From an uncultured delta proteobacterium (GTDB lineage Bacteria; Desulfobacterota; Desulfobacteria; Desulfobacterales; JAFDCJ01): a stretch of DNA of 64,000 nucleotides. Below the pieces are notes generated by a model. The model was not told where the DNA came from. It saw only the letters and a list, made by a program, of their open reading frames with translations, and did not search any database. Below are positions 48,956-64,000 of this stretch, piece by piece (the first letter of the stretch is position 1; each line of letters begins with the position of its first letter). The DNA is taken from assembly GCA_963769935.1 (NCBI GenBank), contig CAVYNY010000003.1, positions 1 through 64,000 on the forward strand, read 5' to 3'. The position numbers and the translations under genes were made by a program.

Positions 48956-49606
48956 ATGTACAAACGTGATTTCCAAGCTCCTGAAATGGCTCCATCAGAT
49001 AAAACCACCACGACCTCTGAAACCTCCGACCAGCTGTTCTTGCTTGTTGAACAGGCTAAGGCAGGGAACCGCTCGGCCTTCGCCCAGCTGGCCGACCGAT
49101 TTCATGAAGATATTTATCGCATGGTTTACTACCGCATCAGATCCCGTCCCGATGCTGAGGATATTACCCAGGATGTGTTTTTAAAGATATTTCAAAAAAT
49201 ATCCGGCATCAAAGAGACGGCCAAGTTTCGCGGTTGGCTTTTTAGCATCACGCTGAACCGAATTCGGGATTTTCAGCGCAAAAAACGATTCCGGTCATTA
49301 TTCAAGGCCGAGGATGAAAGTATAGAGTCGCACGCGCCCGAACAAAGCGACCAAGATCAGCCTGATGCGCTGGACCATGTTTTAAAAAAGGATTTTTGGC
49401 GACAAATCGGTTTGATCCTGAACAAACTGTCAAAAATGGAAAAAGAAGTCTTTTTGCTGAGGTTTTTTGATCATCTCAGTTTAACTGAAATCGCGGGCGT
49501 CTTAAAAAAAAACGAAAGCACGGTCAAAACCCATCTGTATCGCGCGCTCGCCAAATTTAAAAGTGAACCCGCAATGCGACGCCTTCTCAATGAGGTTAAC
49601 AAGTGA
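48956..49606 (+). CDS. ECF RNA polymerase sigma factor (1)
   Basis: Region 2 DAEDITQDVFLK/FRGWLFSITLN and region 4 EIAGVL..ESTVKTHLYRAL. Confidence 0.92.
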   Translation: MYKRDFQAPEMAPSDKTTTTSETSDQLFLLVEQAKAGNRSAFAQLADRFHEDIYRMVYYRIRSRPDAEDITQDVFLKIFQKISGIKETAKFRGWLFSITLNRIRDFQRKKRFRSLFKAEDESIESHAPEQSDQDQPDALDHVLKKDFWRQIGLILNKLSKMEKEVFLLRFFDHLSLTEIAGVLKKNESTVKTHLYRALAKFKSEPAMRRLLNEVNK

Positions 49607-50157
49607 ACTCAAATGACAACCACCATTTGGACGAGAATCAATTTATTAAAGCGGTAGTGGATGCATCCGACCTGCCGGAGGCCGTGCAGGCGCATTTGTT
49701 CACCTGCACTCAATGCCGGAACAGAAGGCAAAACTTTGAGCGGGAATTGACCAGTTTAGGCCAAATTGCCGGGCTGTCGGTACCGAAACCGCAAAGACGG
49801 ATCATTTTGCCGGCGCAAAAGTCCACAATCAGATTCTCAAGTTTCTTGGATTGGCGCAGCGTTATTGTGGCAGCGGCGACGGTTGCCGCTGTATTTATGG
49901 TTGTGTGGGGCACCAACATGGCACGCAATTTTTCCGAGCACCGAACCGAAAACCTGACAGCGGAAATACGGGATGCCAATCGACCCATGAGCGAAGTCAA
50001 CTCGCTTGTTGAAAATGCGCTGCCCCCATTTTATTTAGAAATCGCAGATGAACCAAAACCAGATTACGATGAAGAGTTTTATCAATTTTTGATTCCGCCT
50101 GTTGAAGATAAAACCGTAACCTCTGAGCAAGGGAATCGAGGAACTTCATTATGCTAA
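49603..50157 (+). CDS. Zinc-binding (HxxxCxxC) transmembrane anti-sigma factor (1)
   Basis: HLFTCTQC motif and a single TM segment; overlaps the sigma stop codon. Confidence 0.8.
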   Translation: MNSNDNHHLDENQFIKAVVDASDLPEAVQAHLFTCTQCRNRRQNFERELTSLGQIAGLSVPKPQRRIILPAQKSTIRFSSFLDWRSVIVAAATVAAVFMVVWGTNMARNFSEHRTENLTAEIRDANRPMSEVNSLVENALPPFYLEIADEPKPDYDEEFYQFLIPPVEDKTVTSEQGNRGTSLC

Positions 50158-50558
50158 GAAAGATATTCAGTGTCATCTTGCCGGTCATTTTTCTGGTTGC
50201 TCCATTGATTGCCGCGGCTCAGCACGGTCCAAGAGGCAAATGGTGGCATAACCCCCAGATTCAAAAGAATTTGAATTTGAACGAAAATGAAATCGGCAAA
50301 TTGGACCAGCTTTTTGCCAACATCCGCCCCAACCTGATCAAGCTTAAAACGGATGTCGAGCGCGAGCAATTTGAACTGGATCAACTCCTGAGCAAAAAAA
50401 AGGTCGACGATGCTGATGTTAAAAAGCAGTTCCAAAAACTGGAGCAAGCCCGTAAAAATCTTTCCAACGCACGCCTTGACTTTGTGATCGGCGTTCGCAA
50501 CATACTCGGTGCCGATCGCTTCCAGCAGCTCAAGTCCAACTTTCAGAAGTGGCAGTAG
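50151..50558 (+). CDS. Spy/CpxP-like periplasmic protein
   Basis: Signal peptide, GKWW, LNLNENE, helical composition and IL.ADRFQQL. Confidence 0.75.
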   Translation: MLRKIFSVILPVIFLVAPLIAAAQHGPRGKWWHNPQIQKNLNLNENEIGKLDQLFANIRPNLIKLKTDVEREQFELDQLLSKKKVDDADVKKQFQKLEQARKNLSNARLDFVIGVRNILGADRFQQLKSNFQKWQ

Positions 50559-50616: not shown

Positions 50617-51366
50617 ATGGATCCGGCAGCAATTCTCGCTTCACGCGACATCCTGCAAAAAATAGAAACCGTTTGCAGTCGACAGTTCTCTGCTGAAAAC
50701 GACCGGGATGAGTGTTACATCTTCGTGCTTGACAGCCTCAAGGCCGACGATTTTAAGCGGCTGCGGGCCTTTAAAGGCAAAAGCAAATTATCCACCTATC
50801 TGTATTCTCTGATCAACTCCCTGGTTATTGATTTCAGACGCAAAAAATACGGCCGCCGGCGTGTCCCGGCCGCCGTGTTAAAACTCGGCAAGTGGGCTGA
50901 GGCAGTCTACCGGCTGGTGTGCTGGCAAAAGTTTTCCTTTGATGACGCCTATGATTTTCTGCGGGTTGACGGCCTGTATGACGGCAACTATGATCAGTTC
51001 ATACAGGAGATCGAGGCGATCCGGAATGCACCCTGCCGGGAAAATCCGACTTTTAAATCGATCGATGAACCAGACAGAAATTCGGTCCAGCATATGGAAG
51101 CTTCAGGCGCCGATCCGCTGGAGGACCTGATACAAGCGCTTGACAGGGAAAAAAGAATCACAGCCCTCAGGGTTATTCGCGCAACAACGGAGGCACTGCC
51201 GGAGCCCGATCAGATTCTGGTCAGGCTGGTGTTCGGCTCGGGGCAGCCGCTAAGTGCGGCTGCCAAAATCATCAACCTTTCTGCATCCGCAGCCCGCAAA
51301 CGGCTGCAGACTCTTTTATTAAAATACAGAGAAAGTTTGCTGGCCATTGGTATCCGCGAGCCGTAA
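50617..51366 (+). CDS. ECF-like sigma factor (2) with long inter-domain insertion
   Basis: Region 2 RLRAFKGKSKLSTYL..LVIDFRRK and region 4 LPEPDQILVRL..LSAAAKII..AARKRL. Confidence 0.75.
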   Translation: MDPAAILASRDILQKIETVCSRQFSAENDRDECYIFVLDSLKADDFKRLRAFKGKSKLSTYLYSLINSLVIDFRRKKYGRRRVPAAVLKLGKWAEAVYRLVCWQKFSFDDAYDFLRVDGLYDGNYDQFIQEIEAIRNAPCRENPTFKSIDEPDRNSVQHMEASGADPLEDLIQALDREKRITALRVIRATTEALPEPDQILVRLVFGSGQPLSAAAKIINLSASAARKRLQTLLLKYRESLLAIGIREP

Positions 51367-51435: not shown

Positions 51436-52023
51436 ATGGGAAAATGGATCAATAAAAGCATGGCGCCAGCCGTTTCAGAGCAATCCGCTAATCATCCGGC
51501 CATCGAAGATATCGCGCGGCTGGCGGAAGGCAGGGTCGAGCAAGCTGAACGGGAACAATTCCTGCGCCATCTCAACCGATGCCAAAGATGCTACGAAATC
51601 CTGCAGGAAACCCTGATAGACATTGCCTCCGCCAGGCCTTTGCCAAAGGTTTCCGGTCCCTGGTGGAAATCCAAAATCTTTTATGCCTTGGCTGCCTCAA
51701 TTTTACTGGTCATTATCATCGGCGGGCGCCTGGTATTTGAACACCGCAATCAACATCCCCGGATCATAACCGCCACACTTGATATGGATCAGGAGTTAAA
51801 GGACATCCTGCTGGAAGGCGACACCCTGCGGTGGGAGAAGGGACCGCGGCTAAGCCGGCTGGTGGCTGCTCTGCACAAAAAAGGTCTGCAATTTAATGAT
51901 CTGAAAGCTGCTATCCTTGCGCAACCCTACTATCAGAAAAAAAGCCTGTTCGGTCCCGGGGAAGTCCTTCATATTCGCATCGAGAATGGCGTGGCCTATC
52001 TGAAGGTTAAAGAAAAAAACTAG
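51436..52023 (+). CDS. zf-HC2-type transmembrane anti-sigma factor (2)
   Basis: HP...HLNRCQRC motif and the YALAASILLV TM segment. Confidence 0.8.
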   Translation: MGKWINKSMAPAVSEQSANHPAIEDIARLAEGRVEQAEREQFLRHLNRCQRCYEILQETLIDIASARPLPKVSGPWWKSKIFYALAASILLVIIIGGRLVFEHRNQHPRIITATLDMDQELKDILLEGDTLRWEKGPRLSRLVAALHKKGLQFNDLKAAILAQPYYQKKSLFGPGEVLHIRIENGVAYLKVKEKN

Positions 52024-52308: not shown

Positions 52309-53157
52309 ATGTTAAAAGTGACGTTCAGCAGCTCGGCCCCGAATCCTCCAATTCGAACATGGCGTTGGGTGTTTCTTGGATTGGCCGTTTTTATTTTTAC
52401 TGTCCCGGGATTTCCGGCAGCTGCGAAACAACCCCCTACCATTCAGCTGTTTCCAACCACGGTGGTGGAAAATATCAAGCACACCGGAGAGGCGGCCAAA
52501 GCCATGGAACAGGACCTTCAGAGTGTGATTGACCGCCTGAATCAGCAGGAGGAGCTTTACCTGGCGAGCAAGTGCGAAGGGGCCGCAGCCGAACAGGGCT
52601 GCAATGAAATCGCCGGACAGCTGAGTCAAACCTATCTGGAGATGCTGACCTTGATGGAAACCCGCCTGCCGGGGATGGAGGATTCGGTCCGGGCCACGAA
52701 TACCAGCCTGGAAAGACGGATTCGCACGGAGTTGGGCCGCAAAACAACTCCCCGTGGTCTGCAAAAACTTGTAGATGGAACGCCGCAGCAATCAACTGAG
52801 TCTCCCCGCTACAAGCGAAGGGCGGGAAGACTGAGCGAAAAGTTCAGACAGTATTACAAACTGGTAGCCATGGCCCCCGGATCGGGCGCGGGTGGATCAC
52901 TGGCGGCAGTCGCCGCTGAAATTTACCTTGATACCCAGGAAGTGCAGGAACTTATTGCCCTCACCCGCGATGAAATCAGCCGCGCCAAACTCATGATTGA
53001 TCTCGATCAGGCATACGGCATCATCACGCCGGAAATGTTTGAGATGGTCGGCCGGGTGAAAACGATTATATTTGGCGAGACCGGAGAAGCGGAAGGCATA
53101 CCCAGTCCGCCGGCCGGCAGCGCTAAAGCAGAATATCGCAGCCCCCTTGAGATGTAA
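52309..53157 (+). CDS. Exported helical/coiled-coil hypothetical protein
   Basis: Signal peptide ending AAA, a paired Cys motif, helical composition; GAGGAG RBS. Confidence 0.8.
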   Translation: MLKVTFSSSAPNPPIRTWRWVFLGLAVFIFTVPGFPAAAKQPPTIQLFPTTVVENIKHTGEAAKAMEQDLQSVIDRLNQQEELYLASKCEGAAAEQGCNEIAGQLSQTYLEMLTLMETRLPGMEDSVRATNTSLERRIRTELGRKTTPRGLQKLVDGTPQQSTESPRYKRRAGRLSEKFRQYYKLVAMAPGSGAGGSLAAVAAEIYLDTQEVQELIALTRDEISRAKLMIDLDQAYGIITPEMFEMVGRVKTIIFGETGEAEGIPSPPAGSAKAEYRSPLEM

Positions 53158-53194
53158 CTATGGAGGCGTTCGCCTATAACCGGAGGGTGTTATT

Positions 53195-53767
53195 ATGATT
53201 AAGCTACAAAGTAAAATGAATGCCTGGCGTTTCGACCAAATTTTTCTGATGTTGATAGTCCTCGCACTTTTTCCGGCGGCCTGCGGGAACCGGCAATATG
53301 TTAAACCCGGCTGCACGCTGCCTTCCGGCGTAAATCTTGAAGAAGCGTTGGCGCACTCAAGAGAAGATCTTGGGCACCTGGAGTGCGAAACCATGTTTGA
53401 CGGTTACTATATTAGACTCATTGAAGTCGCCAAACGCGACCCCGCAATACAAAACAAGCGCAAGTTCAGCGATTTTTTGGAATGGGCCAATGGGGAAGGC
53501 ATTATCGATAAGATCCAGGCTCGCGACTACTATAATCGCTACTTCAATACCACCTTCATGTCTCTGCCGGACGATTTTAATGTTTGCTCATCCTGCGCCG
53601 AGAAAACCCAAAAAGATCTCGAATCCCAGCTGGAAGAAGAACTCGGCCAGAAAGAAGAAGGGCTGTTGAGAGCGTGCCAGGATAAAAACGCCTATTACCT
53701 TGCGGCTGATCAATATAACTCCATCATGCTGCTGCTGGACGCCACCTGCACTGCCTGTCGGAACTGA
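53195..53767 (+). CDS. Cys-rich helical lipoprotein
   Basis: PAAC lipobox and multiple further Cys residues; GGAGG RBS. Confidence 0.8.
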   Translation: MIKLQSKMNAWRFDQIFLMLIVLALFPAACGNRQYVKPGCTLPSGVNLEEALAHSREDLGHLECETMFDGYYIRLIEVAKRDPAIQNKRKFSDFLEWANGEGIIDKIQARDYYNRYFNTTFMSLPDDFNVCSSCAEKTQKDLESQLEEELGQKEEGLLRACQDKNAYYLAADQYNSIMLLLDATCTACRN

Positions 53768-53947
53768 TATGACAAGCGAATGTCAGATAATGCTGAGCAT
53801 CAGGACTGAATAACACGGACTGAGCAACGAGGACTGAGGACAGAGATGGAAAAAATTCGAGCGATGCAAACAGCGATACGTTCAGTCCTCAGCCCTCAGC
53901 CCTCATCACTTTTTCGAGCAGAAACTAAATTTTAGGGAATTCATACG

Positions 53948-54661
53948 ATGGAAAACAGATCTCATTCCGTCACGGTCTTTTCAGCCGGCTTTATCACCGG
54001 CGCCCTGGGAGTGCTGGTTATCGGCGCTGCGATGCTTTACATGTTGAACATGTCTGAATTTGTTGCCATATCCGTGTTGAAAATTCCCAGGGTTCAAAGG
54101 GTGCTGACGTGGACCTATGAGAATCTCAGACTCTCGATCATCCCCTTTTTCTTTACTTCGCTGCTGTATACCGGCTCTCTTCTCCGCTTAAAGCGTTATC
54201 TGAAAGATCAGCGCACTCCGGTGGAAAAGATTGCCCAGAGCGAGCAGCTGGTTGATATCTGGATCAATCTATTCTTCGGGATCGGGGTAATTTGGACGGC
54301 CATCGGCATGCGCGGCGCCTTGCTGGACGGAGTCGGTGACTTGAATGCCCAATCGGCAGCACAGCTGGGCGCCTTTTCGATCCTGCAACGATTGGTGGAC
54401 GGCGGAATTTTGCTGGCATTATCCACCACCATCTTCGGTGCCGTCGGCGGCTATCTGCTGCGCCTGATTAAATCCATGGCGGTGGGTACCCAGGTGAAAG
54501 CTTATTACAATCGACTGGCAGAGCAGCAGGCCGACTCAGTTCATAAAGCCCTGCAATCCATCGACGGGCGGGTCCAGGAATTGGTGGGGATACAGAAAAA
54601 TTTAAATAACTTGGCGAACACAACCGATGAAGGTAAAGCTATCCGTCCGCCGGTTATTTAA
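53948..54661 (+). CDS. MotA/TolQ/ExbB-like proton-channel membrane protein
   Basis: Four hydrophobic segments. FFGIGVIWTAIGM and GGILLALSTTIFG parallel the family motifs GLLGTVxG and GIxxALxTTxxG. Confidence 0.7.
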   Translation: MENRSHSVTVFSAGFITGALGVLVIGAAMLYMLNMSEFVAISVLKIPRVQRVLTWTYENLRLSIIPFFFTSLLYTGSLLRLKRYLKDQRTPVEKIAQSEQLVDIWINLFFGIGVIWTAIGMRGALLDGVGDLNAQSAAQLGAFSILQRLVDGGILLALSTTIFGAVGGYLLRLIKSMAVGTQVKAYYNRLAEQQADSVHKALQSIDGRVQELVGIQKNLNNLANTTDEGKAIRPPVI

Positions 54662-54790
54662 AGAAATGCAGGCATCAGGTGTTGAGAAAAAGCAAAAATA
54701 TCAGAAAGGTTTCAATCCCTGCACACCGCAACGGACAATGGACAAACGACAGCGGACTTTGAATAATTGGCGCTCAATTTGGAGCAATCG

Positions 54791-55627
54791 ATGCACCCTT
54801 TATATCCATCGCCAATATCTCTTATCCGGCCCGAGGCTTCCTTTTCAAATGAGGTGGAAGTGCTGCAGACGGATGTCATGCGATTTTTTGCGATATTATG
54901 TCTGTGCCTGATGGCGATATTTGCTCTGGTCAAAACCCTGCCCATGGCCCCTTCGACCGGTCCTCCCACGATGGTCGAACCCACGGACCTTAAAGCAGAT
55001 GTCGAAGCTCTGCAAAAACACATTGCCATGCTCAAAGAGAGGCTTGGGCAGTTAAGGACCCAAGTTCAGGCCGCCGCCGTCGACGCCGAAAAATCAACGA
55101 CCGTGGCTGCCGTTGCGGAAAAAAAAATTAAAGATGAAACGCAACACCTGGCAGAGATACAGGCAAAACTGAAGCGGGAAAGAGTAAAATTGAATCAACC
55201 TCGGTCGGAGAAAAAACCGGCTGAAATATTACCGGCTGAGCAAAAAAATCCGCCGCCTCAGACCGTCAGGCAAGGATTCAGCTTGCGTTTTGCCTCGGAT
55301 GCGGCGCTGCAAAAGCTGATCGACAGCGGGAAAGTAAATTTTTATGCATTAGCCGGGAAAAAAGCCTGGCAATTGCACCTGAGAGACGGACAGCCGGTCT
55401 ATTCGTCGACCCGATTTCCCAGTCAAATTCATGAAATGCAGACTCCCACCGTTCCCACTGAGTATACCGGGGCTTTTCACCGGCAGGTAGCGGCGTTCGG
55501 CCGCACCACGGTGACCTGGGGGGTGACGCTGCCTTCCCCAACTATGTCATCCATTAACCAGCTCATCAAAAGCCGACCCGGGGGTGATCTGATCATCACC
55601 GCGGCCGGCGAGGTCGTTATAAAATGA
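54791..55627 (+). CDS. Single-TM partner with coiled coil (MotB/ExbD/TolR-like position)
   Basis: LQTDVMRFFAILCLCLMAIFALV places an Asp at the TM start, followed by a coiled coil and a globular domain. GGAG RBS before the ATG at 54791. Confidence 0.6.
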   Translation: MHPLYPSPISLIRPEASFSNEVEVLQTDVMRFFAILCLCLMAIFALVKTLPMAPSTGPPTMVEPTDLKADVEALQKHIAMLKERLGQLRTQVQAAAVDAEKSTTVAAVAEKKIKDETQHLAEIQAKLKRERVKLNQPRSEKKPAEILPAEQKNPPPQTVRQGFSLRFASDAALQKLIDSGKVNFYALAGKKAWQLHLRDGQPVYSSTRFPSQIHEMQTPTVPTEYTGAFHRQVAAFGRTTVTWGVTLPSPTMSSINQLIKSRPGGDLIITAAGEVVIK

Positions 55628-57222
55628 CAACCACCAACAACATCGGGACCGGGATCCGGCCGTACATTTTACTCTTGATTTTTATAGGGTTGTCGGCCTG
55701 CAGCGGCCATCAGGTGTACCATGAAGTTGGACTGCCGGCCGGCGGATCGTCGCTTGATACCTGGCTGGAAGATACCCTTATTCCATACCTGCTCCAGCAA
55801 CTCAGCCAGCACCCGCGCTTTAAAGGCCAACCCATTTTGTTGGTCGGCCTGCGCGGCGATGAGGTCCGCTCCCGCGCAGATGACTTGACGGGAGAGATCC
55901 GATCAAAAATCGGCGACGCGCTGCTGAAACAACCCGGTCTCGATCTTGCCTGGCAACCGACCGGCCCGCCACGAGAACACCATCAACGTCTCGCGGATGT
56001 CTCCTGTGGCACTTACCGCAAAATCCAATATTACATCGGTCTGGACTGCGGTTTGACCCGATTGGAGGGCAAGCTTTATGTAAAAGTGCGGGCCTTGAAC
56101 CTTGCCGAACAAAAATGGGTGACCGGCTTCGGCAAATCATGGGAAGGGCGGCCGACCGCAGCCCAGCTGGCGGCTCTGGCGCGCGAACATCCGGATGAAT
56201 ATTTGCGGGGTCGGCGCCAGCTGCCGTTTTCCGAGGAGCAGCCGGATTTGTTGGCTGCCTATTTGGCCCGCAATCTAAGCTGTGTTTTGCGGCAGGCCGA
56301 ATCCGATAATCTGGTGGTGCATGTTGCCAAACCATCCGCAAATTCCCCGGCAGTCTTTAAAACGGCCCTGGAACTTGTGGGAAACTACCTGGCGCGTTTT
56401 CGGGAGGTGGAAGTAACCGATGATCCGAACCAGGCCAATATCACCCTGGTATGCGAAATCCATGCCATCCATCAAGGCTTGCACCAGATCTGGGTCTCTG
56501 CCAGACACCGCCGTGATGAAAAATATCTGCCCGGCGCAGAGACTGAAGCGTATGTGTTGATTGATGCCCATGAACAGATGCAGGTCGCCGGCGCGCAGAA
56601 TGCAAGACCTTATGCGCCCCTGCCCTCCGCCGCGCGCCTATCGAATTCATCTGAACTAATAGCATCATTTGATCTACTGACGCCGATGAATCAGAATTCA
56701 TGTTCAACCGGCGCTCCCTGGCAGTCTGGTGTACGGCGGATTGACTCCCAGGAACGTATTCCGGGCGGCGGCTGTCTGGCCGTAGAAATGACGCTTTCGG
56801 CGGCGGCTTATGTTTTTTTGGTGGGTCAGGATGCCGGTGGTGAATTAACGCAAATGTTTCCATCTGTCTGCACCGGCCGGCAGGAAAATGATGCCCTGCT
56901 CCATCCCGGTCAGCTATTTCAATTTCCATCACTTTCAGATCCCAACGCCGGGGTACTGGAACTTACCGGTTCGCCCGGCAGGGAACGGGTTTTTGCAATT
57001 GCCATAACAAGCCCGGATCTGGCCGATCGATTTGCCGACCGGCTGGTGGAAGTCCAGGACCTGTGCCGACCCGGCAAAATATTTGCCGATAACCTAATAG
57101 CCGGTAATAGCCGAACCTCTGCCGAAGGTATTTATCAATGGCAAGACTACTTGATCCGGCTTTCGGCTGATAATCCCGGTTTGGTCCAGTGGCAGGCAAT
57201 CAGCTTCTGGCACGAGCCGTAG
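55624..57222 (+). CDS. Lipoprotein with C-terminal DUF4384-like domain
   Basis: LSAC lipobox and the pattern AAYVFLVGQDAGGELTQMFP...PGRERVFAIA. Confidence 0.7.
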   Translation: MTTTNNIGTGIRPYILLLIFIGLSACSGHQVYHEVGLPAGGSSLDTWLEDTLIPYLLQQLSQHPRFKGQPILLVGLRGDEVRSRADDLTGEIRSKIGDALLKQPGLDLAWQPTGPPREHHQRLADVSCGTYRKIQYYIGLDCGLTRLEGKLYVKVRALNLAEQKWVTGFGKSWEGRPTAAQLAALAREHPDEYLRGRRQLPFSEEQPDLLAAYLARNLSCVLRQAESDNLVVHVAKPSANSPAVFKTALELVGNYLARFREVEVTDDPNQANITLVCEIHAIHQGLHQIWVSARHRRDEKYLPGAETEAYVLIDAHEQMQVAGAQNARPYAPLPSAARLSNSSELIASFDLLTPMNQNSCSTGAPWQSGVRRIDSQERIPGGGCLAVEMTLSAAAYVFLVGQDAGGELTQMFPSVCTGRQENDALLHPGQLFQFPSLSDPNAGVLELTGSPGRERVFAIAITSPDLADRFADRLVEVQDLCRPGKIFADNLIAGNSRTSAEGIYQWQDYLIRLSADNPGLVQWQAISFWHEP

Positions 57223-57384
57223 AGAAAGGACACTAATTGTATTTGAATTGAAAATACTCTGCTGCCGATGTCGGAAGGATCCATTTTGACCAAATGGCGC
57301 AAGGCAGACGGCGCAGGGTATTTGTGCTCGTCTTAATATGATGCCATTAGCTCGGGTAACAGGTAGTCCATGAGGTGCAGTTCA

Positions 57385-57465
57385 CAACCGGTAACCCGAG
57401 ACACGCACCTCGTAAGCCGAAACACGTAACTCGCAACCCGTAACTCGCAACCCGTAACTCGCAAC
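57385..57465 (+). repeat. Heptamer-based tandem repeat
   Basis: (CGTAACTCGCAACC)x3, the last copy ending ..AAC, plus degenerate copies; ends at the SLT start codon. Confidence 0.8.
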
Positions 57466-58289
57466 ATGACTCAACTGCACATTATCACTAAACTAATTAT
57501 CTGCCTGGCCTTGCTTGGATATGGTCAACAGGCGGCAGGCGCCCTTAAAGAAGCCGGATCGGATATTGAGGCGCTGTGGCGCCTTTTTCTGGCCAACGAT
57601 GCGCTGAAATCCCCTGTGATCAGTTTCCCTTATGATCACTGTTTTAATACGGCCGCCCAAAAATATGATCTACCTTTATCACTTCTTCTGGCCGTGGCGC
57701 GCGGTGAATCCGACTTTAATCCCAGAGCCCGGTCGGATCGCAACTGCCACGGATTGATGCAAATCCAGTGGCCCGGAACAGCCAAACATCTGGGAATCTA
57801 TCGACTTGCGGCGCTGTATGAGCCGTGCACCAATATTAGCGCCGGAGCCCGATATCTGAGGGAGCTTATGGACCGCTATGATCAAAATCTGCATCTGGCC
57901 CTGGCGGCATACAACTACGGGCCGAATCGCATCCAGCCCAAAGCCGGACCGGGCCGTATTCCTCAGGGCGCCCAATGGTACAGCGGCTATATTTACCATC
58001 ACCTGGAATTTGTCACCCAGGGGGGGACGCCGCATCCGGCGGCGCAGCGGGCAAAGGGTCGGCCTACGGCCGTGAAAAGCGGCTGGCAATCATAACGTTT
58101 AACCGGCCATATCGAGCGAGCGCATTTTACCGGCACCTTCAAGAACAGGCACCTGCGCTGAAACTCGATTGGTATCGTATCGGTTTGGGAAGGTTTCAGG
58201 TGGTGATGCGGTTCACGGATAAAAAAGCACTGGAAGCCGGCCGCAAAAAATTAAGAACTCTGGGAGTGATCGTCAAAGCCAGGAAATGA
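57466..58289 (+). CDS. Exported lytic transglycosylase (SLT) with SPOR-like C-terminus; frameshift at the G7 tract 58020-58026
   Basis: Motifs AVARGESDFNP, GLMQI and AAYNYGP. The C-terminal domain (IITFNRPYRA...GRFQVVM) lies in the shifted frame. Confidence 0.8.
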
Positions 58290-58388: not shown

Positions 58389-58617
58389 TATAGTTTCATA
58401 TGAGCGCCGCGGCTCTGAGAGCGTCATCTGATAGTGGAAGAAATTCGATGTAGTTTTATAAGTGCCCTCACCGCTGAGAGTCACAGAGAGCGCAGAGATT
58501 ACATTAAAATTTTCTTTCGTCGGCGTTCTCGGCAGGCTCTGCGGTGAACTATCAGTTTCTTTTTCGATCAGATCGGCCGTTGTTTTGACAATGCGGCTTT
58601 GGCGCTGAAACCTGACA
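58389..58617. repeat. Composite dispersed repeat / MITE-like element, copy B
   Basis: TCACCGCTGAG...CTCTGCGGTGA at 58468-58547. AGTTTCATATGAGCGCCG is the reverse complement of 21774-21791. Confidence 0.75.
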
Positions 58618-58733: not shown

Positions 58734-60158
58734 ATGGCTGACAAAAATAAAAAGCTCGGCGGTTTTTGGTCCTATCTTCTCTGGCTGCTGCTGATGTCAT
58801 TGGTCCTCGTTTCAACCTCCAGGGGTGAAGATCGGGCCCTGCTGATCGGTGTCGGACGGTATGCGCATTTCGAAGAAAAGCTCAACGGCGTCAGTCTGGA
58901 TCTCGGCATGATGAAAGAATTATCACAACTGATGGGATTTAAGGAACATGCAATTAAGGTGCTGGAAAATGAGCAGGCATCTACCGCCGGGGTTAATGAG
59001 GCGATTGAAGACTGGTTGATTCGGGGCACCGGACCGCAGGACCGGGTCCTGTTTTATTTCAGCGGGCACGGCTCCCAGGTTCCGGATGAAAACAACGATG
59101 AAAAGGATCATTTTGATGAAGTGCTGCTGCTCTATGATGTGACCCTCACGGAAAGGCAAGGCCGGCAGACATTGAACGGTGTTTTGCTCGATGATCAATT
59201 CGGCAGCATGCTGGCAAAAATCAAAAGCCGCAACATTCTGGTCATTCTCGATGCCTGCCACAGCGGCAGCGCAACCAGGAGCATCCGGCTGACCACCCGG
59301 TCTATTCCGATACACAACGCTCAGGTGAAATACTTCTATTATTCGCCGATGCTGGAGGCAGCCGGCGGCAGCGGCCGGTTCGATGTGATGGAGCCGGATG
59401 CTTCACCGGCGGCTGCAGGCCGCTATGTGGCAATTTCGGCCTGCCGCGACGATGAGATGACGCTTGCCACCGCCCAGGGAAGCATATTCACACTCGGGCT
59501 GCGCGAGACCTTGCGTGCGGCGGCCAGGGCCGGAAAAAGCATTTCGCCCGCAGAATTACAGCGCCGGACGACCCGATTCATTCAGGAACAAATAGGATCC
59601 GAAGGGGCTGCATTTCATCCCCAGATTGCCGGCCAAAAATCCCTTCTTGAGCGTCCTTTGGAACTGGTCTCACTTGCCGGAGGAAGCGGCCCGGTGCGTC
59701 AAAATCTGGAAGCATTGATGCATAAAAGCCATGAAACCGTCTGGATCAATTTAAACAAAATCTGTTTTGAACCTGGCGACGTACTTGAAATATCCGTCAG
59801 ATTATCCGAACCGGGGTATTTGAATGTCGTCAGTGTTCGTCCGGATGATCAGGCCACGGTGCTGTTTCCAAACCAATATCACCGACAGAATGCCGTTGAC
59901 CGGGGCGCGTTGACCCTACCCACCCGTCAGATGAACTTTGAATTGGTGGCCGACGGCCCCCCGGGCACCATTCTGATAACGGCCTTTCTGACCCCTTCAC
60001 CGGTGGACGGCTACAAAAACGGCTTCAAGACCCCGGAGGATGTGATGGCGGGTCTCTCACCCGGTACAACGCGCTCCTTGATGCTGCGCCAAAACCAGGA
60101 CTGGCTGGCCGCCGGCAGGGTAGCCGTTGAAATGCGGGAAAAAGGAGGATGCAGGTGA
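58734..60158 (+). CDS. Exported caspase-family (peptidase C14) protease with DUF4384-like C-terminus
   Basis: Signal peptide; RALLIGVG, FSGHG and LDACHSG form an intact dyad; C-terminal EPGYLNVV..TVLFPNQYH. Confidence 0.88.
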   Translation: MADKNKKLGGFWSYLLWLLLMSLVLVSTSRGEDRALLIGVGRYAHFEEKLNGVSLDLGMMKELSQLMGFKEHAIKVLENEQASTAGVNEAIEDWLIRGTGPQDRVLFYFSGHGSQVPDENNDEKDHFDEVLLLYDVTLTERQGRQTLNGVLLDDQFGSMLAKIKSRNILVILDACHSGSATRSIRLTTRSIPIHNAQVKYFYYSPMLEAAGGSGRFDVMEPDASPAAAGRYVAISACRDDEMTLATAQGSIFTLGLRETLRAAARAGKSISPAELQRRTTRFIQEQIGSEGAAFHPQIAGQKSLLERPLELVSLAGGSGPVRQNLEALMHKSHETVWINLNKICFEPGDVLEISVRLSEPGYLNVVSVRPDDQATVLFPNQYHRQNAVDRGALTLPTRQMNFELVADGPPGTILITAFLTPSPVDGYKNGFKTPEDVMAGLSPGTTRSLMLRQNQDWLAAGRVAVEMREKGGCR

Positions 60159-61036
60159 AATATTTTTTCAAGTTTATCGCTGTCTTGTCGCTAATAATTT
60201 TTACCTGTATTCCCGTGGCGACCCGTATTTCAGCTGCTATGGACTGCCGTCTGGGTGCTGATTACTACTACCAGGCCAAATCCGAAGCCGATCCGCAGCA
60301 GGCTATCCTCTGGTTGAAGCGGTCGGCGCAAGTATGCCCCAATTTCAATGCCTGGTATATGCTCGGGATGATATACACCCGCCAAGGAGAAATTGATCCC
60401 GCCATGGCCGCTTTTATGCGGGCCAGGACCCAGGCTGTTTCCTCCAAAACCGAAGCCCTGGCCCTGGCCCGCCAGGGCGAACTGCTGGCCCGCTCCGGTC
60501 AGCTGCCCCGGGCCCAGCAGGCCCTGGAACTGGCTGGACGGTTTTATCCTGCACCTGCGCCGGCTTGGCTGGAGGCATCTCTTAAGAATACCAGAATTAA
60601 ACTGCAGCAGTCGCTGATAACAGCAGCCGATATCAAGTATGTACTTGAATCCGGCACGCAATTAAGCAAAGACGGCCGATTTGCGGTTCGCCCGGCAGTG
60701 AACCTGCCGGTGCACTTTGACTTCGACCGGGCGGATCTGAATTCAGCCGGCAGCCGTCAGGTGATGGAACTGGGTGGTGCCCTTTCCCACGCAACATTGA
60801 AGCAGTGGTCTTTTCTGCTGGTCGGCCATACCGACAAGCGCGGATCCATGGCCTACAATCAGACGCTCTCCGAAAGTCGCGCCTCTTCGGTAAGGATAGA
60901 ATTGGAACACAGCTTTCCTTCGCTCATCGGCAGGCTGCAAGCCATGGGACGCGGCGAGACCGAATTACTGTACGACGGCGACAGCGAAGAAGATCATATG
61001 CTCAATCGCCGCGTGCAGGTGACGCTTTATCATTGA
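60149..61036 (+). CDS. Exported TPR + OmpA-C (peptidoglycan-binding) protein
   Basis: Signal peptide, TPR helices, and motifs VHFDFDRADL, GHTDKRGS..YNQTLSESRA and NRRV. Confidence 0.88.
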   Translation: MQVKYFFKFIAVLSLIIFTCIPVATRISAAMDCRLGADYYYQAKSEADPQQAILWLKRSAQVCPNFNAWYMLGMIYTRQGEIDPAMAAFMRARTQAVSSKTEALALARQGELLARSGQLPRAQQALELAGRFYPAPAPAWLEASLKNTRIKLQQSLITAADIKYVLESGTQLSKDGRFAVRPAVNLPVHFDFDRADLNSAGSRQVMELGGALSHATLKQWSFLLVGHTDKRGSMAYNQTLSESRASSVRIELEHSFPSLIGRLQAMGRGETELLYDGDSEEDHMLNRRVQVTLYH

Positions 61037-61215
61037 AAATTGAAGATTGAAGATTGAAGATTGAAGATTTATGGAGTCGCCTCGCTCCAACTTTCAATTT
61101 AAATATTTTCAAAACCAAATCCGTTTGCAGCAAGATGTTTAATTGATAATGCGATATTTAAAATTTTGGCTAAAATCGATAGGATTCCGCCAATTTTCAA
61201 TCTTCAATTTTCAAT
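61032..61215. repeat. Inverted heptamer-array element (ATTGAAG)n ... (CTTCAAT)n
   Basis: ATTGAAG x4-5 at 61032-61068, with TTTCAAT/CTTCAAT repeats at about 61191-61215. A similar element lies at 20210-20332. Confidence 0.75.
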
Positions 61216-61254: not shown

Positions 61255-64000
61255 ATGATTAGAGGACATAAAAAAATAGCGCTGTTGACGATATTGCTCT
61301 GGCTGGCCGGCGGCATTTCCCTGCCTGCCCTTGCTGAAAATCATGCCCTGCTGATCGGTATCGGCAAATACCGGCAGCGCACACTGGAGGGGCCGCCCTA
61401 TGATGTTGCGGCGCTTTCTCGAGTGCTTGCGGCGCAGTATGATTTTCAAAAGGAAAATATCCGTACGCTCGTAAATGAAGAAGCCGTCAAGTCCAGAATC
61501 CTTTCTGAGATCGAGCGTCTGACGCATCACACCCATCCCGGAGACCGGGTATTCATTTATTTCAGCGGTCACGGAACCAGCCGCCGGGATGAAGTGCTGG
61601 CGCTTCCGCTGCCGTACAGCACCGGTGCGCTGGTGCCGGCTGATTTTGAGGCTGATCCCGCTCAACCGGTTGAAAAACTGCTGTCGCAGCTGATCATCGG
61701 CAGACGCGACCTGCGGCCGGCGCTGGAGCGACTTGATCGGGACCGACAGGTCCTGATGGTTTTTGATACCTGTTTTTCAGGCAATACCATCCGAGCCATT
61801 GGAAATCATAAAACCGCAAATTTAAGCCGCTACCTCCCGCTGCCGTCAAGAAGTGTCTTCAAAGCGGAGCGGGAAATTGGAAGCTTTGAGGAAAATTTGA
61901 ATCTGGATGACCCATATCCCTATCAAAATATTTTTTATATTTCGGCGGCTTCGGAAAATGAAGTCGCCAAGGATATCCAAAAAGATACCTTGGACTTATA
62001 TCCGACCATTGACGGCAATCCCCATGGGGTTCTGACGGACGCCCTTTTAAGGGTGCTGGCGGGACAAATGCGCGTCGACACCGACAACGACGGCCGGTGG
62101 AGCCAGATTGAGCTGTATGCGGCTGTCAAAAAAGAGGTTCAACGGCGCTTCCAACAATCGCCGCAGGCCTTGCCCAAGGTAGGGACCCGCACCGATCGGC
62201 TGTATTCGAGAACCTTTTTTGTGCGTTCGGCAAAAGCGGTTGCCACAGCAGGCGGGCACCCGGCCGAACCGGCGCCCGGCCGCCAGGGCGCGAATTATCA
62301 ATCGGGTTATTCTTCTTCCCATGCGCTGGTGGTTGGCATAAACGAATATCGACACTGGCCGCGGCTCGAATATGCCGCCAATGATGCCAGGGCAATGGCC
62401 GCCAGGTTGAAAGCACAGGGCTTTCAGACTTACCTGCTCACCGATGAGCAGGCCACGCTGAAAAATATTCTGGCCGGACTGGAAACGATTCGCCGCAGCA
62501 TTGATGAGAATTCACGGATGATGTTCTATTTTGCCGGGCACGGTCAGACCGAGGACCTGCCTGGAGGACGGGAAAGAGGGTATATCGTGCCGGTGGATGC
62601 GGATGCCTACAACTGGCAGCGTACGATGCTGCCCATGGATCGGTTGAATCAAACTATCAGGCAGTTCAAAGCCAAACATATCCTTATGGCCTTTGACTCC
62701 TGTTACTCCGGACTGGGGTTGACTCGCTCGATAAAAGGTCGTCCCGATCCGGATTCCGCCTACATTCAGAAAATGATGCACTCCCGAAGTATTCAGATAC
62801 TGACAGCGGGCAGCCGTTCCGAGCAGGCCATTGAAGCTGCCGGCCACGGACTGTTCACGGACCAACTGCTGGCCGCCCTCGCGGGGGCGGCGGATATTAA
62901 TTCCGACGGATACATTACGGCGACCGAAATTTATGCCACCCTGCGTCCGGCCATAACCCAGAAGTCCTATAGCCGCCAGACCCCGCAGTTCGGCTATATC
63001 GAGGGCAACGGCGATATTATTTTTCTTAATACTTCCCGCGAACCAGAACCTGCCGCCGTTGTTGTTGATACTGCAATTAGCGGCATCGACGTATGGGCCG
63101 GCACCTCTGAAATCGGTCACCGCCTGCCGGCCGGACGGCATCAGTTACCGGCTCTTGCGGGGCAAACAGCTCTGATCGTTAAAAAGGGCGGACGCACCCT
63201 TTATCGAAAGAATGTGCTGCTGTCCGCCAACAGGGTGTTTTCAATCCAGATCGGCGCAACCATTGCGACATCACACCCGCCGGAAGCATTTTCCACGATT
63301 ACTATTGCCAATCATAGCGTCGACAATTATTCAAATTCGATTGCCTATGATCTGGACGGTGACGGCCGGGAGGAGATGGTGACCGCCTCGGATAACCGGC
63401 TTTTTGCTTTCAGGTCCGACGGCACCATCATCTGGGAAAAAAAATTCCATTTCCCGATCACCTTGGATCTGATTGATGACTGGAATTCGCAGCCGGCCAT
63501 TGGGCTGTCCGCCGTGAATGAGGATACAGTTCACCTGGTGCTGCTTGACCAGCGGGGAGAGCAAATTTGGCAGCATGTCCGAAAACTTACCCGCTATTAC
63601 AACGGCAAAACCGACGGCGGGGGAAAGATTGCCGGGCTGGCGGACGTCGACCGGGACGGCCGCCAGGACGTCGTGGCCTTTGCCACGGCAGAATACACCT
63701 TAAAGCCCCGCGGCATCATCGTGTACGACGGTCGTGCCCGTGAACTGTGGCGCTACACAATCGGACCCGCTCCACAAAGCATCGTTGTCTGGCAAAAAGA
63801 TTCAGGACGACCCGACATCATCATCGGAACGTACAGCCCGGGCGACGGAAATCGCGACTTAACCAACAACACCAGCGATATGCAAACCTACATCATCAGT
63901 GTCGACGGTTTTGGCAAAGCAAACTGGCAGATCCCGGTCGGCGGGTTTTACAGCGGGGTTGTCGTGCTGCCGGCCGGTCTGAAGGACCCTGCCCGTCGCT
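61255..64000 (+). CDS. Exported tandem double-caspase (2x C14) protein with PEGA-like and FG-GAP/beta-propeller repeats (3' partial; absent from ORF track)
   Basis: Manual translation from the ATG at 61255 stays open to the window end (915 codons). It has a signal peptide, FSGHG/FDTCFSG and FAGHG/FDSCYSG dyads, and DLDGDGREE and DVDRDGRQD repeats. Confidence 0.88.
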   Translation, partial: MIRGHKKIALLTILLWLAGGISLPALAENHALLIGIGKYRQRTLEGPPYDVAALSRVLAAQYDFQKENIRTLVNEEAVKSRILSEIERLTHHTHPGDRVFIYFSGHGTSRRDEVLALPLPYSTGALVPADFEADPAQPVEKLLSQLIIGRRDLRPALERLDRDRQVLMVFDTCFSGNTIRAIGNHKTANLSRYLPLPSRSVFKAEREIGSFEENLNLDDPYPYQNIFYISAASENEVAKDIQKDTLDLYPTIDGNPHGVLTDALLRVLAGQMRVDTDNDGRWSQIELYAAVKKEVQRRFQQSPQALPKVGTRTDRLYSRTFFVRSAKAVATAGGHPAEPAPGRQGANYQSGYSSSHALVVGINEYRHWPRLEYAANDARAMAARLKAQGFQTYLLTDEQATLKNILAGLETIRRSIDENSRMMFYFAGHGQTEDLPGGRERGYIVPVDADAYNWQRTMLPMDRLNQTIRQFKAKHILMAFDSCYSGLGLTRSIKGRPDPDSAYIQKMMHSRSIQILTAGSRSEQAIEAAGHGLFTDQLLAALAGAADINSDGYITATEIYATLRPAITQKSYSRQTPQFGYIEGNGDIIFLNTSREPEPAAVVVDTAISGIDVWAGTSEIGHRLPAGRHQLPALAGQTALIVKKGGRTLYRKNVLLSANRVFSIQIGATIATSHPPEAFSTITIANHSVDNYSNSIAYDLDGDGREEMVTASDNRLFAFRSDGTIIWEKKFHFPITLDLIDDWNSQPAIGLSAVNEDTVHLVLLDQRGEQIWQHVRKLTRYYNGKTDGGGKIAGLADVDRDGRQDVVAFATAEYTLKPRGIIVYDGRARELWRYTIGPAPQSIVVWQKDSGRPDIIIGTYSPGDGNRDLTNNTSDMQTYIISVDGFGKANWQIPVGGFYSGVVVLPAGLKDPARR

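Follow-up and report, generated by a model that had tools for sequence, protein, structure and literature searches.

We analysed a 64,000-nucleotide stretch of DNA (the window) from an uncultured sediment delta proteobacterium of the order Desulfobacterales (contig CAVYNY010000003.1, positions 1 to 64,000), the last gene of which encodes two intact caspase-like (peptidase C14) domains in tandem. The original prediction held that this gene had been missed by open reading frame calling because no stop codon occurs within the window, and extension of the contig bears this out: the frame is free of internal stops, stays open to the end of the window and reaches a stop at contig position 64563, giving a protein of 1102 amino acids (aa). 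We term the two C14 domains D1 and D2; the gene and its parts are as follows.

61255..64000, on to contig position 64563, + strand: twin-C14 gene (C14–C14–beta-sandwich–propeller, 1102 aa), from the open reading frame, genome extension and Pfam
61255..61335, + strand: predicted Sec signal peptide, aa 1-27, with a basic n-region, a hydrophobic core and A-L-A at the likely cut (sequence and hydropathy)
61336..62229, + strand: C14 domain D1, aa 28-325, with presumed S1 residues Asp50 and Asp171, His106 (61570), Cys173 (61771) and Arg180 (61792)
62077..62112, + strand: EF-hand loop in D1, aa 275-286, with D275, G280 and E286 in 87/87 relatives
62230..62313, + strand: 28-aa linker, in which the tail of the ancestral D1–DUF4384 gene meets the leader of its ancestral D2 neighbour
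62314..63036, + strand: C14 domain D2, aa 354-594, with presumed S1 residues Asp377 and Asp481, His429 (62539), Cys483 (62701) and Arg491 (62725)
62893..62928, + strand: EF-hand loop in D2, aa 547-558, with D547, N549, D551, G552 and E558 in 131/131 relatives
63046..63258, + strand: seven-strand beta domain, aa about 598-668, from the model, with no Pfam PEGA match
63322..64000, on to 64563, + strand: FG-GAP-type beta-propeller, aa about 690-1102, from Pfam, the model and Foldseek

The protein belongs to peptidase family C14 (caspase family, clan CD), as its PF00656 matches, catalytic dyads and caspase fold attest. PF00656 matches two stretches of the full protein (121.8 bits against a cut-off of 21.4), with D1 of a split relative reaching 63.6 bits, and the FG-GAP-like repeats that had been noticed downstream match both FG-GAP (29.3 against 22.1) and FG-GAP_3 (32.5 against 26.9). 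The motifs lie where they had been placed, SGHG at 61564 and DTC at 61765 in D1, AGHG at 62533 and DSC at 62695 in D2, each domain also carrying a DxDxDG-type loop (DTDNDGRW at 62077, DINSDGYI at 62893). A 'PEGA-like' segment found no support: PEGA (PF08308) did not match the protein in Pfam even at E ≤ 1, and the model gives only a seven-strand beta domain. CHAT (PF12770) likewise gave no match at E ≤ 1, and both halves retain the dyad. The profile of an EACC1-associated caspase (NF047832) reached 135.1 bits summed across the two domains, below its cut-off of 140, and no EACC1 neighbour was found among the 14 proteins scanned. The whole protein has only two Cys residues, the catalytic C173 and C483, and its only strongly hydrophobic 19-residue windows are those beginning at residues 7-10, in the signal peptide.

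Conservation was counted over distinct relatives with, for the domain concerned, no less than 55% identity and 90% completeness. The claim of two intact domains held: H106, C173, D50 and D171 are invariant in 87/87 relatives for D1, and H429, C483, D377 and D481 in 131/131 for D2. Rough pairwise ratios of non-synonymous to synonymous substitution (dN/dS) among seven fused genes are 0.14 for D1 and 0.10 for D2 (21 pairs each, with dS saturated). From alignment to metacaspases and known structure, we take D50, D171, D377 and D481 to line S1; such acidic residues fit C14B, the Arg/Lys-specific ortho-, meta- and paracaspases, and cleavage after Arg or Lys is predicted. An Arg follows the catalytic Cys at C+7 in D1 (R180, 87/87) and at C+8 in D2 (R491, 131/131), within low-confidence loops of the model (174-218 and 485-501, respectively). 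The CRISPR-associated protease PCaspase is reportedly cleaved at C+7, and the literature searched did not give the cleavage position of the Microcystis orthocaspase MaOC1.

The predicted Ca-binding loops each match the whole 12-residue EF-hand pattern (D-x-[DN]-x-D-G-x-x-x-x-x-E), lie between model helices and, by analogy, probably bind Ca2+. Loop and post-Cys Arg are both traits of the wider subfamily: an EF-hand loop occurs in 111/145 distant representatives having the Cys motif, and the Arg in 131/145. In the type I metacaspase Yca1, Ca2+ is bound by Asp236, Asp252 and Asp283, according to the available part of PMC12914765. The acidic loop that follows the His in metacaspases is missing from D1 and D2, and the equivalent of Asp283 (C+7) is Arg180 in D1 and Thr490 in D2 when mapped by the Yca1 numbering, so the canonical type I metacaspase Ca2+ site is not intact.

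An artefact of assembly or frame has next to no chance of explaining the tandem. The same assembly does contain a likely one-base error at 58019 (described below); against an artefact, 52 other D1–D2 proteins are present among 120 listed homologs, fused genes occur in other genomes, and a run contig bridges 61502-63172, across the junction, with 2 differences and no gap (the run is possibly from the same sample as the window's assembly). Misassembly between the domains, which would have undone the prediction, is thereby excluded.

The gene is a fusion of two neighbouring C14 genes that exist separately in relatives. In the split layout, adjacent genes encode signal peptide–D1–middle domain–DUF4384 (~576 aa) and then signal peptide–D2–beta domain–propeller (~778 aa). 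A homolog search with residues 20-600 gave 915 matches among 7997 candidates. The 120 matches listed comprise 52 D1–D2 proteins (two of them likely truncated triples), 5 UP–D1–D2 and 2 UP–D2 proteins (P0061 and P0065, without D1), UP being a third C14 protease encoded upstream, as well as 3 with D1 and no D2 and 58 with D2 and no D1. Proteins P0011, P0019, P0025, P0028 and P0040 and the gene at L062:989-2628, of ~1398 aa, have three different intact C14 domains in series; no forms of 1930-5000 aa were found at E ≤ 1e-10 among 7987 candidates, a weak indication that they do not occur.

Across 41 relatives, the pair is fused in G000, G018, G013, G008 and G001 (frameshifted in the last) and split in G011, G020, G010, G004 and G025 (573 + 718 aa by open reading frame calling in G004), and one genus holds split and fused forms together. 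In 401 genomes of the order, which gave 28 matches at 1e-60, split forms occur in three families (f4, f28 and f58) and fusions only within the window's genus. A D2–propeller gene is present in 22/29 loci of our collection, which come mostly from records named Desulfobacterales or delta proteobacterium, with one Olavius symbiont Delta 1: 4 are fused, 12 have D1 directly upstream, 1 has a D1-like gene two genes up, 2 lie at a contig start and 3, including a Spirochaetaceae and a Desulfobacula record, have no cassette gene in the available DNA. D2–propeller genes also occur with no D1 gene nearby (L136 and L137), and D1-like genes are found in other cassettes without a D2–propeller protein.

The preference for fusion over recent duplication, originally drawn from the divergence of the two domains, proved sound in both its premise and its conclusion. 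D1 and D2 are 31% identical across 153 aa, the parent genes are adjacent in relatives, the root of the D1 tree falls among split genes (by a quick search) and the linker retains remnants of both genes. Duplication was rejected because D1 and D2 are far less alike than each is to its own orthologs, which are ~65-95% identical as separate genes or fusions.

Fused and split rows are interleaved in the D2–propeller tree (90 rows, leaving out those with a propeller less than 55% identical), in which the starred branches force at least 3 changes. The 6 label changes in the D1 tree are an overestimate, as L024 and L026, labelled split, are frameshifted or contig-truncated and group with the fused forms, and P0043 is probably a triple cut short. 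A single fused clade was rejected by the approximately unbiased (AU) test (p 7.7e-7; LG+G4), applied to 28 rows, 14 of each form, that were selected once the D2–propeller tree had been seen. Between fixed anchors the linkers measure 46, 44 or 40 aa, each a D1 tail plus a D2-leader remnant, with differing apparent junctions. Together, these sequences indicate that fused forms likely arose more than once, at least two independent in-frame deletions being the simplest reading. The UP–D2 proteins nest inside the D1–D2 fusions, indicating that D1 was likely lost later. Every fusion seen has dropped DUF4384 and joins a caspase domain, at its end, to the beginning of the caspase domain that follows, and in all three types (D1–D2, UP–D1–D2 and UP–D2) a caspase domain directly precedes D2–propeller. 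In L062, UP is joined straight to D1, and its DUF4384 and the TPR–OmpA gene are missing there (the contig is cut).

These patterns bear on the possibility of operon compaction without cross-talk, in which domain-sparing in-frame deletions were simply tolerated and the domains self-activate and act independently on their own substrates. We regard this as possible, if somewhat unlikely. The co-occurrence of split and fused forms in a single genus, the existence of D2–propeller by itself, the loss of D1 in UP–D2 fusions and the absence of a confident D1–D2 arrangement in the model are all compatible with compaction, as is the partner-free self-processing of MaOC1 (in the available text of PMC5756287). 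However, compaction fits less well with the recurrence of fusions with linkers in the narrow 40-46 aa range and with the uniform placement of a caspase domain ahead of D2–propeller, and it would need the loss of DUF4384, and of TPR–OmpA in the triple L062, to be free of cost.

An AlphaFold2 model of the protein (70-row alignment, mean predicted local distance difference test (pLDDT) 72, predicted template modelling score (pTM) 0.44) contains two caspase-type domains, the seven-strand beta domain and a propeller, with an inter-domain arrangement that is not confident. Foldseek matched the caspase domains to MALT1, Geobacter GSU0716 and metacaspases (E 2e-12 to 2e-9) and the propeller to 8-10-bladed propellers. 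Orthocaspases are defined as having p20 and no p10; D1 and D2 both model a p10-like strand, helices and a QxPQ end, with PF00656 aligned over profile positions 3-223, and extra strands beyond the last helix (320-323 and 589-591). Neither has a prodomain ahead of p20; D1 directly follows the signal peptide, as does D2 in split forms.

The original prediction had also raised a single-chain heterodimer. In its obligate, caspase-style form, with each domain shaping the other's active site, this is very unlikely. In its favour, MALT1, a dimer-activated paracaspase, ranks with the top fold matches, the linker has sufficient length and is modelled at low confidence, and D1 lies directly upstream of D2–propeller in 12/22 loci and is fused to it in 4 more. 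Yet D2 exists without D1 (L136, L137, P0061 and P0065), which disfavours an obligate pair, and D1-like genes have other partners. The extra strands modelled in D1 and D2 lie where metacaspases have strands that block dimerisation. Moreover, the closest solved sequences are metacaspases, described as monomeric in the available part of PMC12914765.

The D1–D2 profile gave 116,451 matches against 1.84 billion representatives, and among the best 150 a single 50%-identity cluster spans the profile, a narrow family; tandems of two intact C14 domains nevertheless recur in 4/149 of the other best matches. These four (P0125, P0126, P0131 and P0171) keep His and Cys in both domains but have no propeller. 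They are among 15/149 with at least two C14-like stretches, all D2-type. In the remaining 11, one domain is degenerate or partial, and no member of the 15 aligns over the full D1–D2 profile. By this measure, two intact C14 domains per chain appear uncommon and recurrent, and it is the pairing of the unlike D1 and D2, the propeller and the documented fusion series that are particular to this lineage. The D2-type tandems (15 proteins, P0125-P0265) often have a His-replaced pseudo-protease followed by an intact domain.

The literature searched, which mostly excluded subscription papers, listed no paper about bacterial proteins that combine two intact C14 domains, nor any about the gene cassette described below, which is apparently undescribed. 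Judging from the portions available, the survey PMC3501461 merges consecutive repeats, and tandem architectures may sit in its Dataset S1, and PMC6426788 classed as 'ambiguous', and set apart, any sequence in which p20 occurs more than once.

Orthocaspases and metacaspase-like C14B proteins (MaOC1; GSU0716, PDB 3bij) have PF00656, the His–Cys dyad, acidic S1 residues and accessory domains in common with the twin-C14 protein, and surveys report DUF4384, EF-hand and OmpA neighbours, sigma-70 operons and up to 3 metacaspases per operon (available text of PMC3501461, PMC6426788 and PMC8283722). Unlike orthocaspases, the twin-C14 protein has two dissimilar intact domains in one exported chain; MaOC1, by the accessible account, has no accessory domain and is Ca2+-independent. 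Type I metacaspases and their relatives (Yca1, 4f6o; Candida, 7qp0; Arabidopsis MC9 and MC4) gave the best PDB sequence matches (E 8e-5 to 0.06) and have the same p20 and p10-like halves ending in QxPQ, but the twin-C14 protein has a signal peptide in place of the prodomain and EF-hand loops in place of the Asp283 site and acidic post-His loop. In Csx29 and separase-type CHAT proteins, two caspase-fold units also share a chain, but the first unit of Csx29 is a pseudo-protease, whereas both dyads are invariant here and the family is PF00656 rather than CHAT.

The twin-C14 gene closes a twelve-gene, one-strand cassette whose order is kept across at least four families: extracytoplasmic function (ECF) sigma factor, anti-sigma factor, 282-aa exported protein, lipoprotein, membrane protein, coiled-coil protein, lipoprotein–DUF4384, soluble lytic transglycosylase (SLT), UP–DUF4384, TPR–OmpA, D1 and D2. 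Its other genes in the window are as follows.

50617..51366, + strand: ECF-type sigma-70 factor (TIGR02937, 45.3 against a cut-off of 42.9)
51436..52023, + strand: predicted zinc-binding transmembrane anti-sigma factor (profile scans, hydropathy)
52309..53157, + strand: conserved exported protein of 282 aa without a family (conservation, hydropathy)
53195..53767, + strand: conserved Cys-rich predicted lipoprotein without a family (profile scans, hydropathy)
53948..54661, + strand: membrane protein, possibly MotA/TolQ/ExbB-like on weak fold and feature matches
54767..55627, + strand: single-pass membrane coiled-coil protein, a putative MotB/ExbD-like partner with an invariant Asp opening the membrane segment
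55624..57222, + strand: predicted lipoprotein with a C-terminal DUF4384 (Pfam)
57466..58289, + strand: SLT lytic transglycosylase that ends in a short additional domain; its gene is interrupted in the window by what is likely a single-base error of assembly near 58019
58734..60158, + strand: UP, a third exported C14 protease, with DUF4384 and an intact dyad (Pfam, alignment)
60149..61036, + strand: TPR–OmpA protein, predicted to bind peptidoglycan (Pfam, synteny)

All three cassette proteases (UP, D1 and D2) have signal peptides. UP keeps its dyad in 39/39 relatives and an Arg or Lys at C+7 or C+8 in 39/39, and it has an acidic metacaspase-like loop after the His and no EF-hand loop. The anti-sigma gene is present in 15/18 loci holding the gene for the 282-aa exported protein, which had a strong match in 1/400 other genomes of the phylum and no usable match in an Atlas search. 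Against PDB sequences, the ECF sigma factor matched FliA only (E 0.36), showing no link to CASP-sigma. The SLT gene lies in two frames in the window and is a single gene of ~273 aa in relatives; contigs from three runs have one extra G at 58019, indicating that the window likely has an assembly error in this gene. RNA-library contigs overlap parts of the cassette; these cannot show transcription and were not used as evidence.

Gene content in relatives suggests that the cassette combines two modules. In G739 the six middle genes are present, the lipoprotein being shorter for want of its DUF4384 portion, and the contig gave no C14 match; G031 has C14–DUF4384, DUF3160, TPR–OmpA, D1-like–DUF4384, SLT–DUF4384 and WD40–C14. 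The six-gene module (window 52309-58289 and L118:9896-14499) comprises the exported protein, Cys-rich lipoprotein, likely MotA/B-type pair, SLT and lipoprotein, and also occurs without a C14 gene on the same contig. The membrane protein had no Pfam or NCBIfam match and, as a profile against PDB, nothing below E 0.24. Its weak matches, among them ZorA, TolQ, ExbB and MotA, are Atlas leads at 0.86 and 0.80 for a relative, Foldseek hits led by TolQ and ZorA (E ≥ 0.15) and VIA Z scores of 8.3-8.4 that lie among helical bundles; the membrane pair weakly resembles MotA/B-type motors. A search with this protein gave 2805 homologs among 3724 candidates. The coiled-coil protein (54767-55627) is ~56 residues short relative to most relatives, and L019 and L079 have similar in-frame deletions.

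A motor-like pair beside proteases might suggest an envelope-sensing defence or antagonism system, Zorya-like, with the twin protease as executioner, which we consider improbable. The fold and feature matches to ZorA, TolQ, ExbB and MotA point that way, as does the pairing of caspase-clan proteases with sigma/anti-sigma pairs in defence loci (PCaspase, Csx29–Csx30 and DdvA), and DUF4384 is the C-terminal domain of some Csx30 proteins (in the accessible part of 10.1101/2022.08.17.504292). But the fold evidence is weak, with Foldseek at E 0.15-1 and a Z of 8.4 in the company of helical bundles, the 12 cassette genes include no cytoplasmic effector (no PADLOC scan was made) and three proteases with signal peptides, and, where defence islands change fast, gene order and sequence here stay stable from family to family.

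We favour, with roughly even confidence, a reading in which neighbouring C14 genes were fused into one likely exported chain of Arg/Lys-cutting zymogens that activate each other once tethered. The biochemistry proposed here extrapolates from domain content, conservation, gene order and the non-monophyly of fused forms. The signal peptide would export the chain to the cell envelope, where each domain would be a self-contained Arg/Lys-specific zymogen, Ca2+-bound through its EF-hand. By family precedent, a cut after the invariant post-Cys Arg (R180 or R491) could switch a domain on, and the tether would let D1 and D2 process each other in cis. Context further suggests that the covalent link may replace a looser DUF4384-dependent association, that the propeller may dock a signal, trigger or substrate, and that the output may be limited proteolysis of cassette proteins (the outer domain of the anti-sigma factor, SLT or TPR–OmpA), perhaps culminating in an envelope-damage or remodelling response.

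Known systems offer precedents, as far as the available parts of the sources go. MaOC1 requires self-cleavage for activity (PMC5756287); PCaspase is switched on by another caspase-clan protease, a CHAT (10.1101/2023.06.23.546230); and DdvA is a transmembrane zinc anti-sigma factor with a periplasmic caspase-clan (CHAT) domain (PMC11506125). The SAVED-CHAT/PCaspase pair of the Haliangium type III-B CRISPR locus likewise combines two caspase-clan proteases, one cleaving and activating the other, with a sigma factor, but these are separate cytoplasmic proteins with a cA3 trigger and a CHAT initiator, whereas D1 and D2 are both C14, exported and fused, and the cassette has no SAVED or CRISPR gene. 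Similarly, DdvA ties its protease domain to an ECF anti-sigma factor in one protein, whereas the anti-sigma factor here is a separate short protein.

Several points weigh against mutual activation in cis. How D1 and D2 sit relative to one another is left undefined by the model (pTM 0.44); the post-Cys Arg and EF-hand loop are too widespread in the subfamily to single out this partner; and D2–propeller alone (L136 and L137) and UP–D2 without D1 indicate that some lineages do without D1. Deletions that keep the frame could also become fixed in a tandem operon while conferring no advantage, and the link to the anti-sigma factor is one of neighbourhood alone. The AU-test rows were chosen post hoc, and recombination of fused with split alleles is another way in which monophyly can be lost, which leaves the number of origins uncertain.

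More speculatively, and we think unlikely as a whole, the cassette could be an undescribed periplasmic cascade in which envelope damage leads to ordered activation of UP, D1 and D2 on a DUF4384 platform and then to ECF sigma release, coupled both to a motor of MotA/B type and to a module that cuts peptidoglycan, and repeatedly hard-wired into single chains. Among the characterised bacterial caspase-like proteases compared here, the roles are defence and toxin control. As the same three intact proteases occur naturally in split, double and triple form, activation order, Ca2+ need and the role of DUF4384 are directly testable, and the repeated loss of DUF4384 upon fusion is a concrete lead for this domain as a tether.

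Upstream of the cassette, 48956-50558 encodes a second ECF sigma factor, an anti-sigma-like protein and a Spy/CpxP-like protein, found with the cassette in G018, G008 and G020. The gap between the TPR–OmpA and twin-C14 genes (61033-61214) contains five copies of TTGAA[AG]A followed by three of its reverse complement (inverted 7-base arrays); 27 such arrays of at least 3 units occur genome-wide, and run contigs are loose-ended at 61033-61214, like a repeated element. A second repeated intergenic element precedes the UP gene at about 58500-58590, where depth is high and contig ends are loose in each of the four runs. Another likely exported protein, encoded elsewhere in the genome (L033:7845-9476, G000:C17), has a C-terminal D2-like C14 domain (31% identical).

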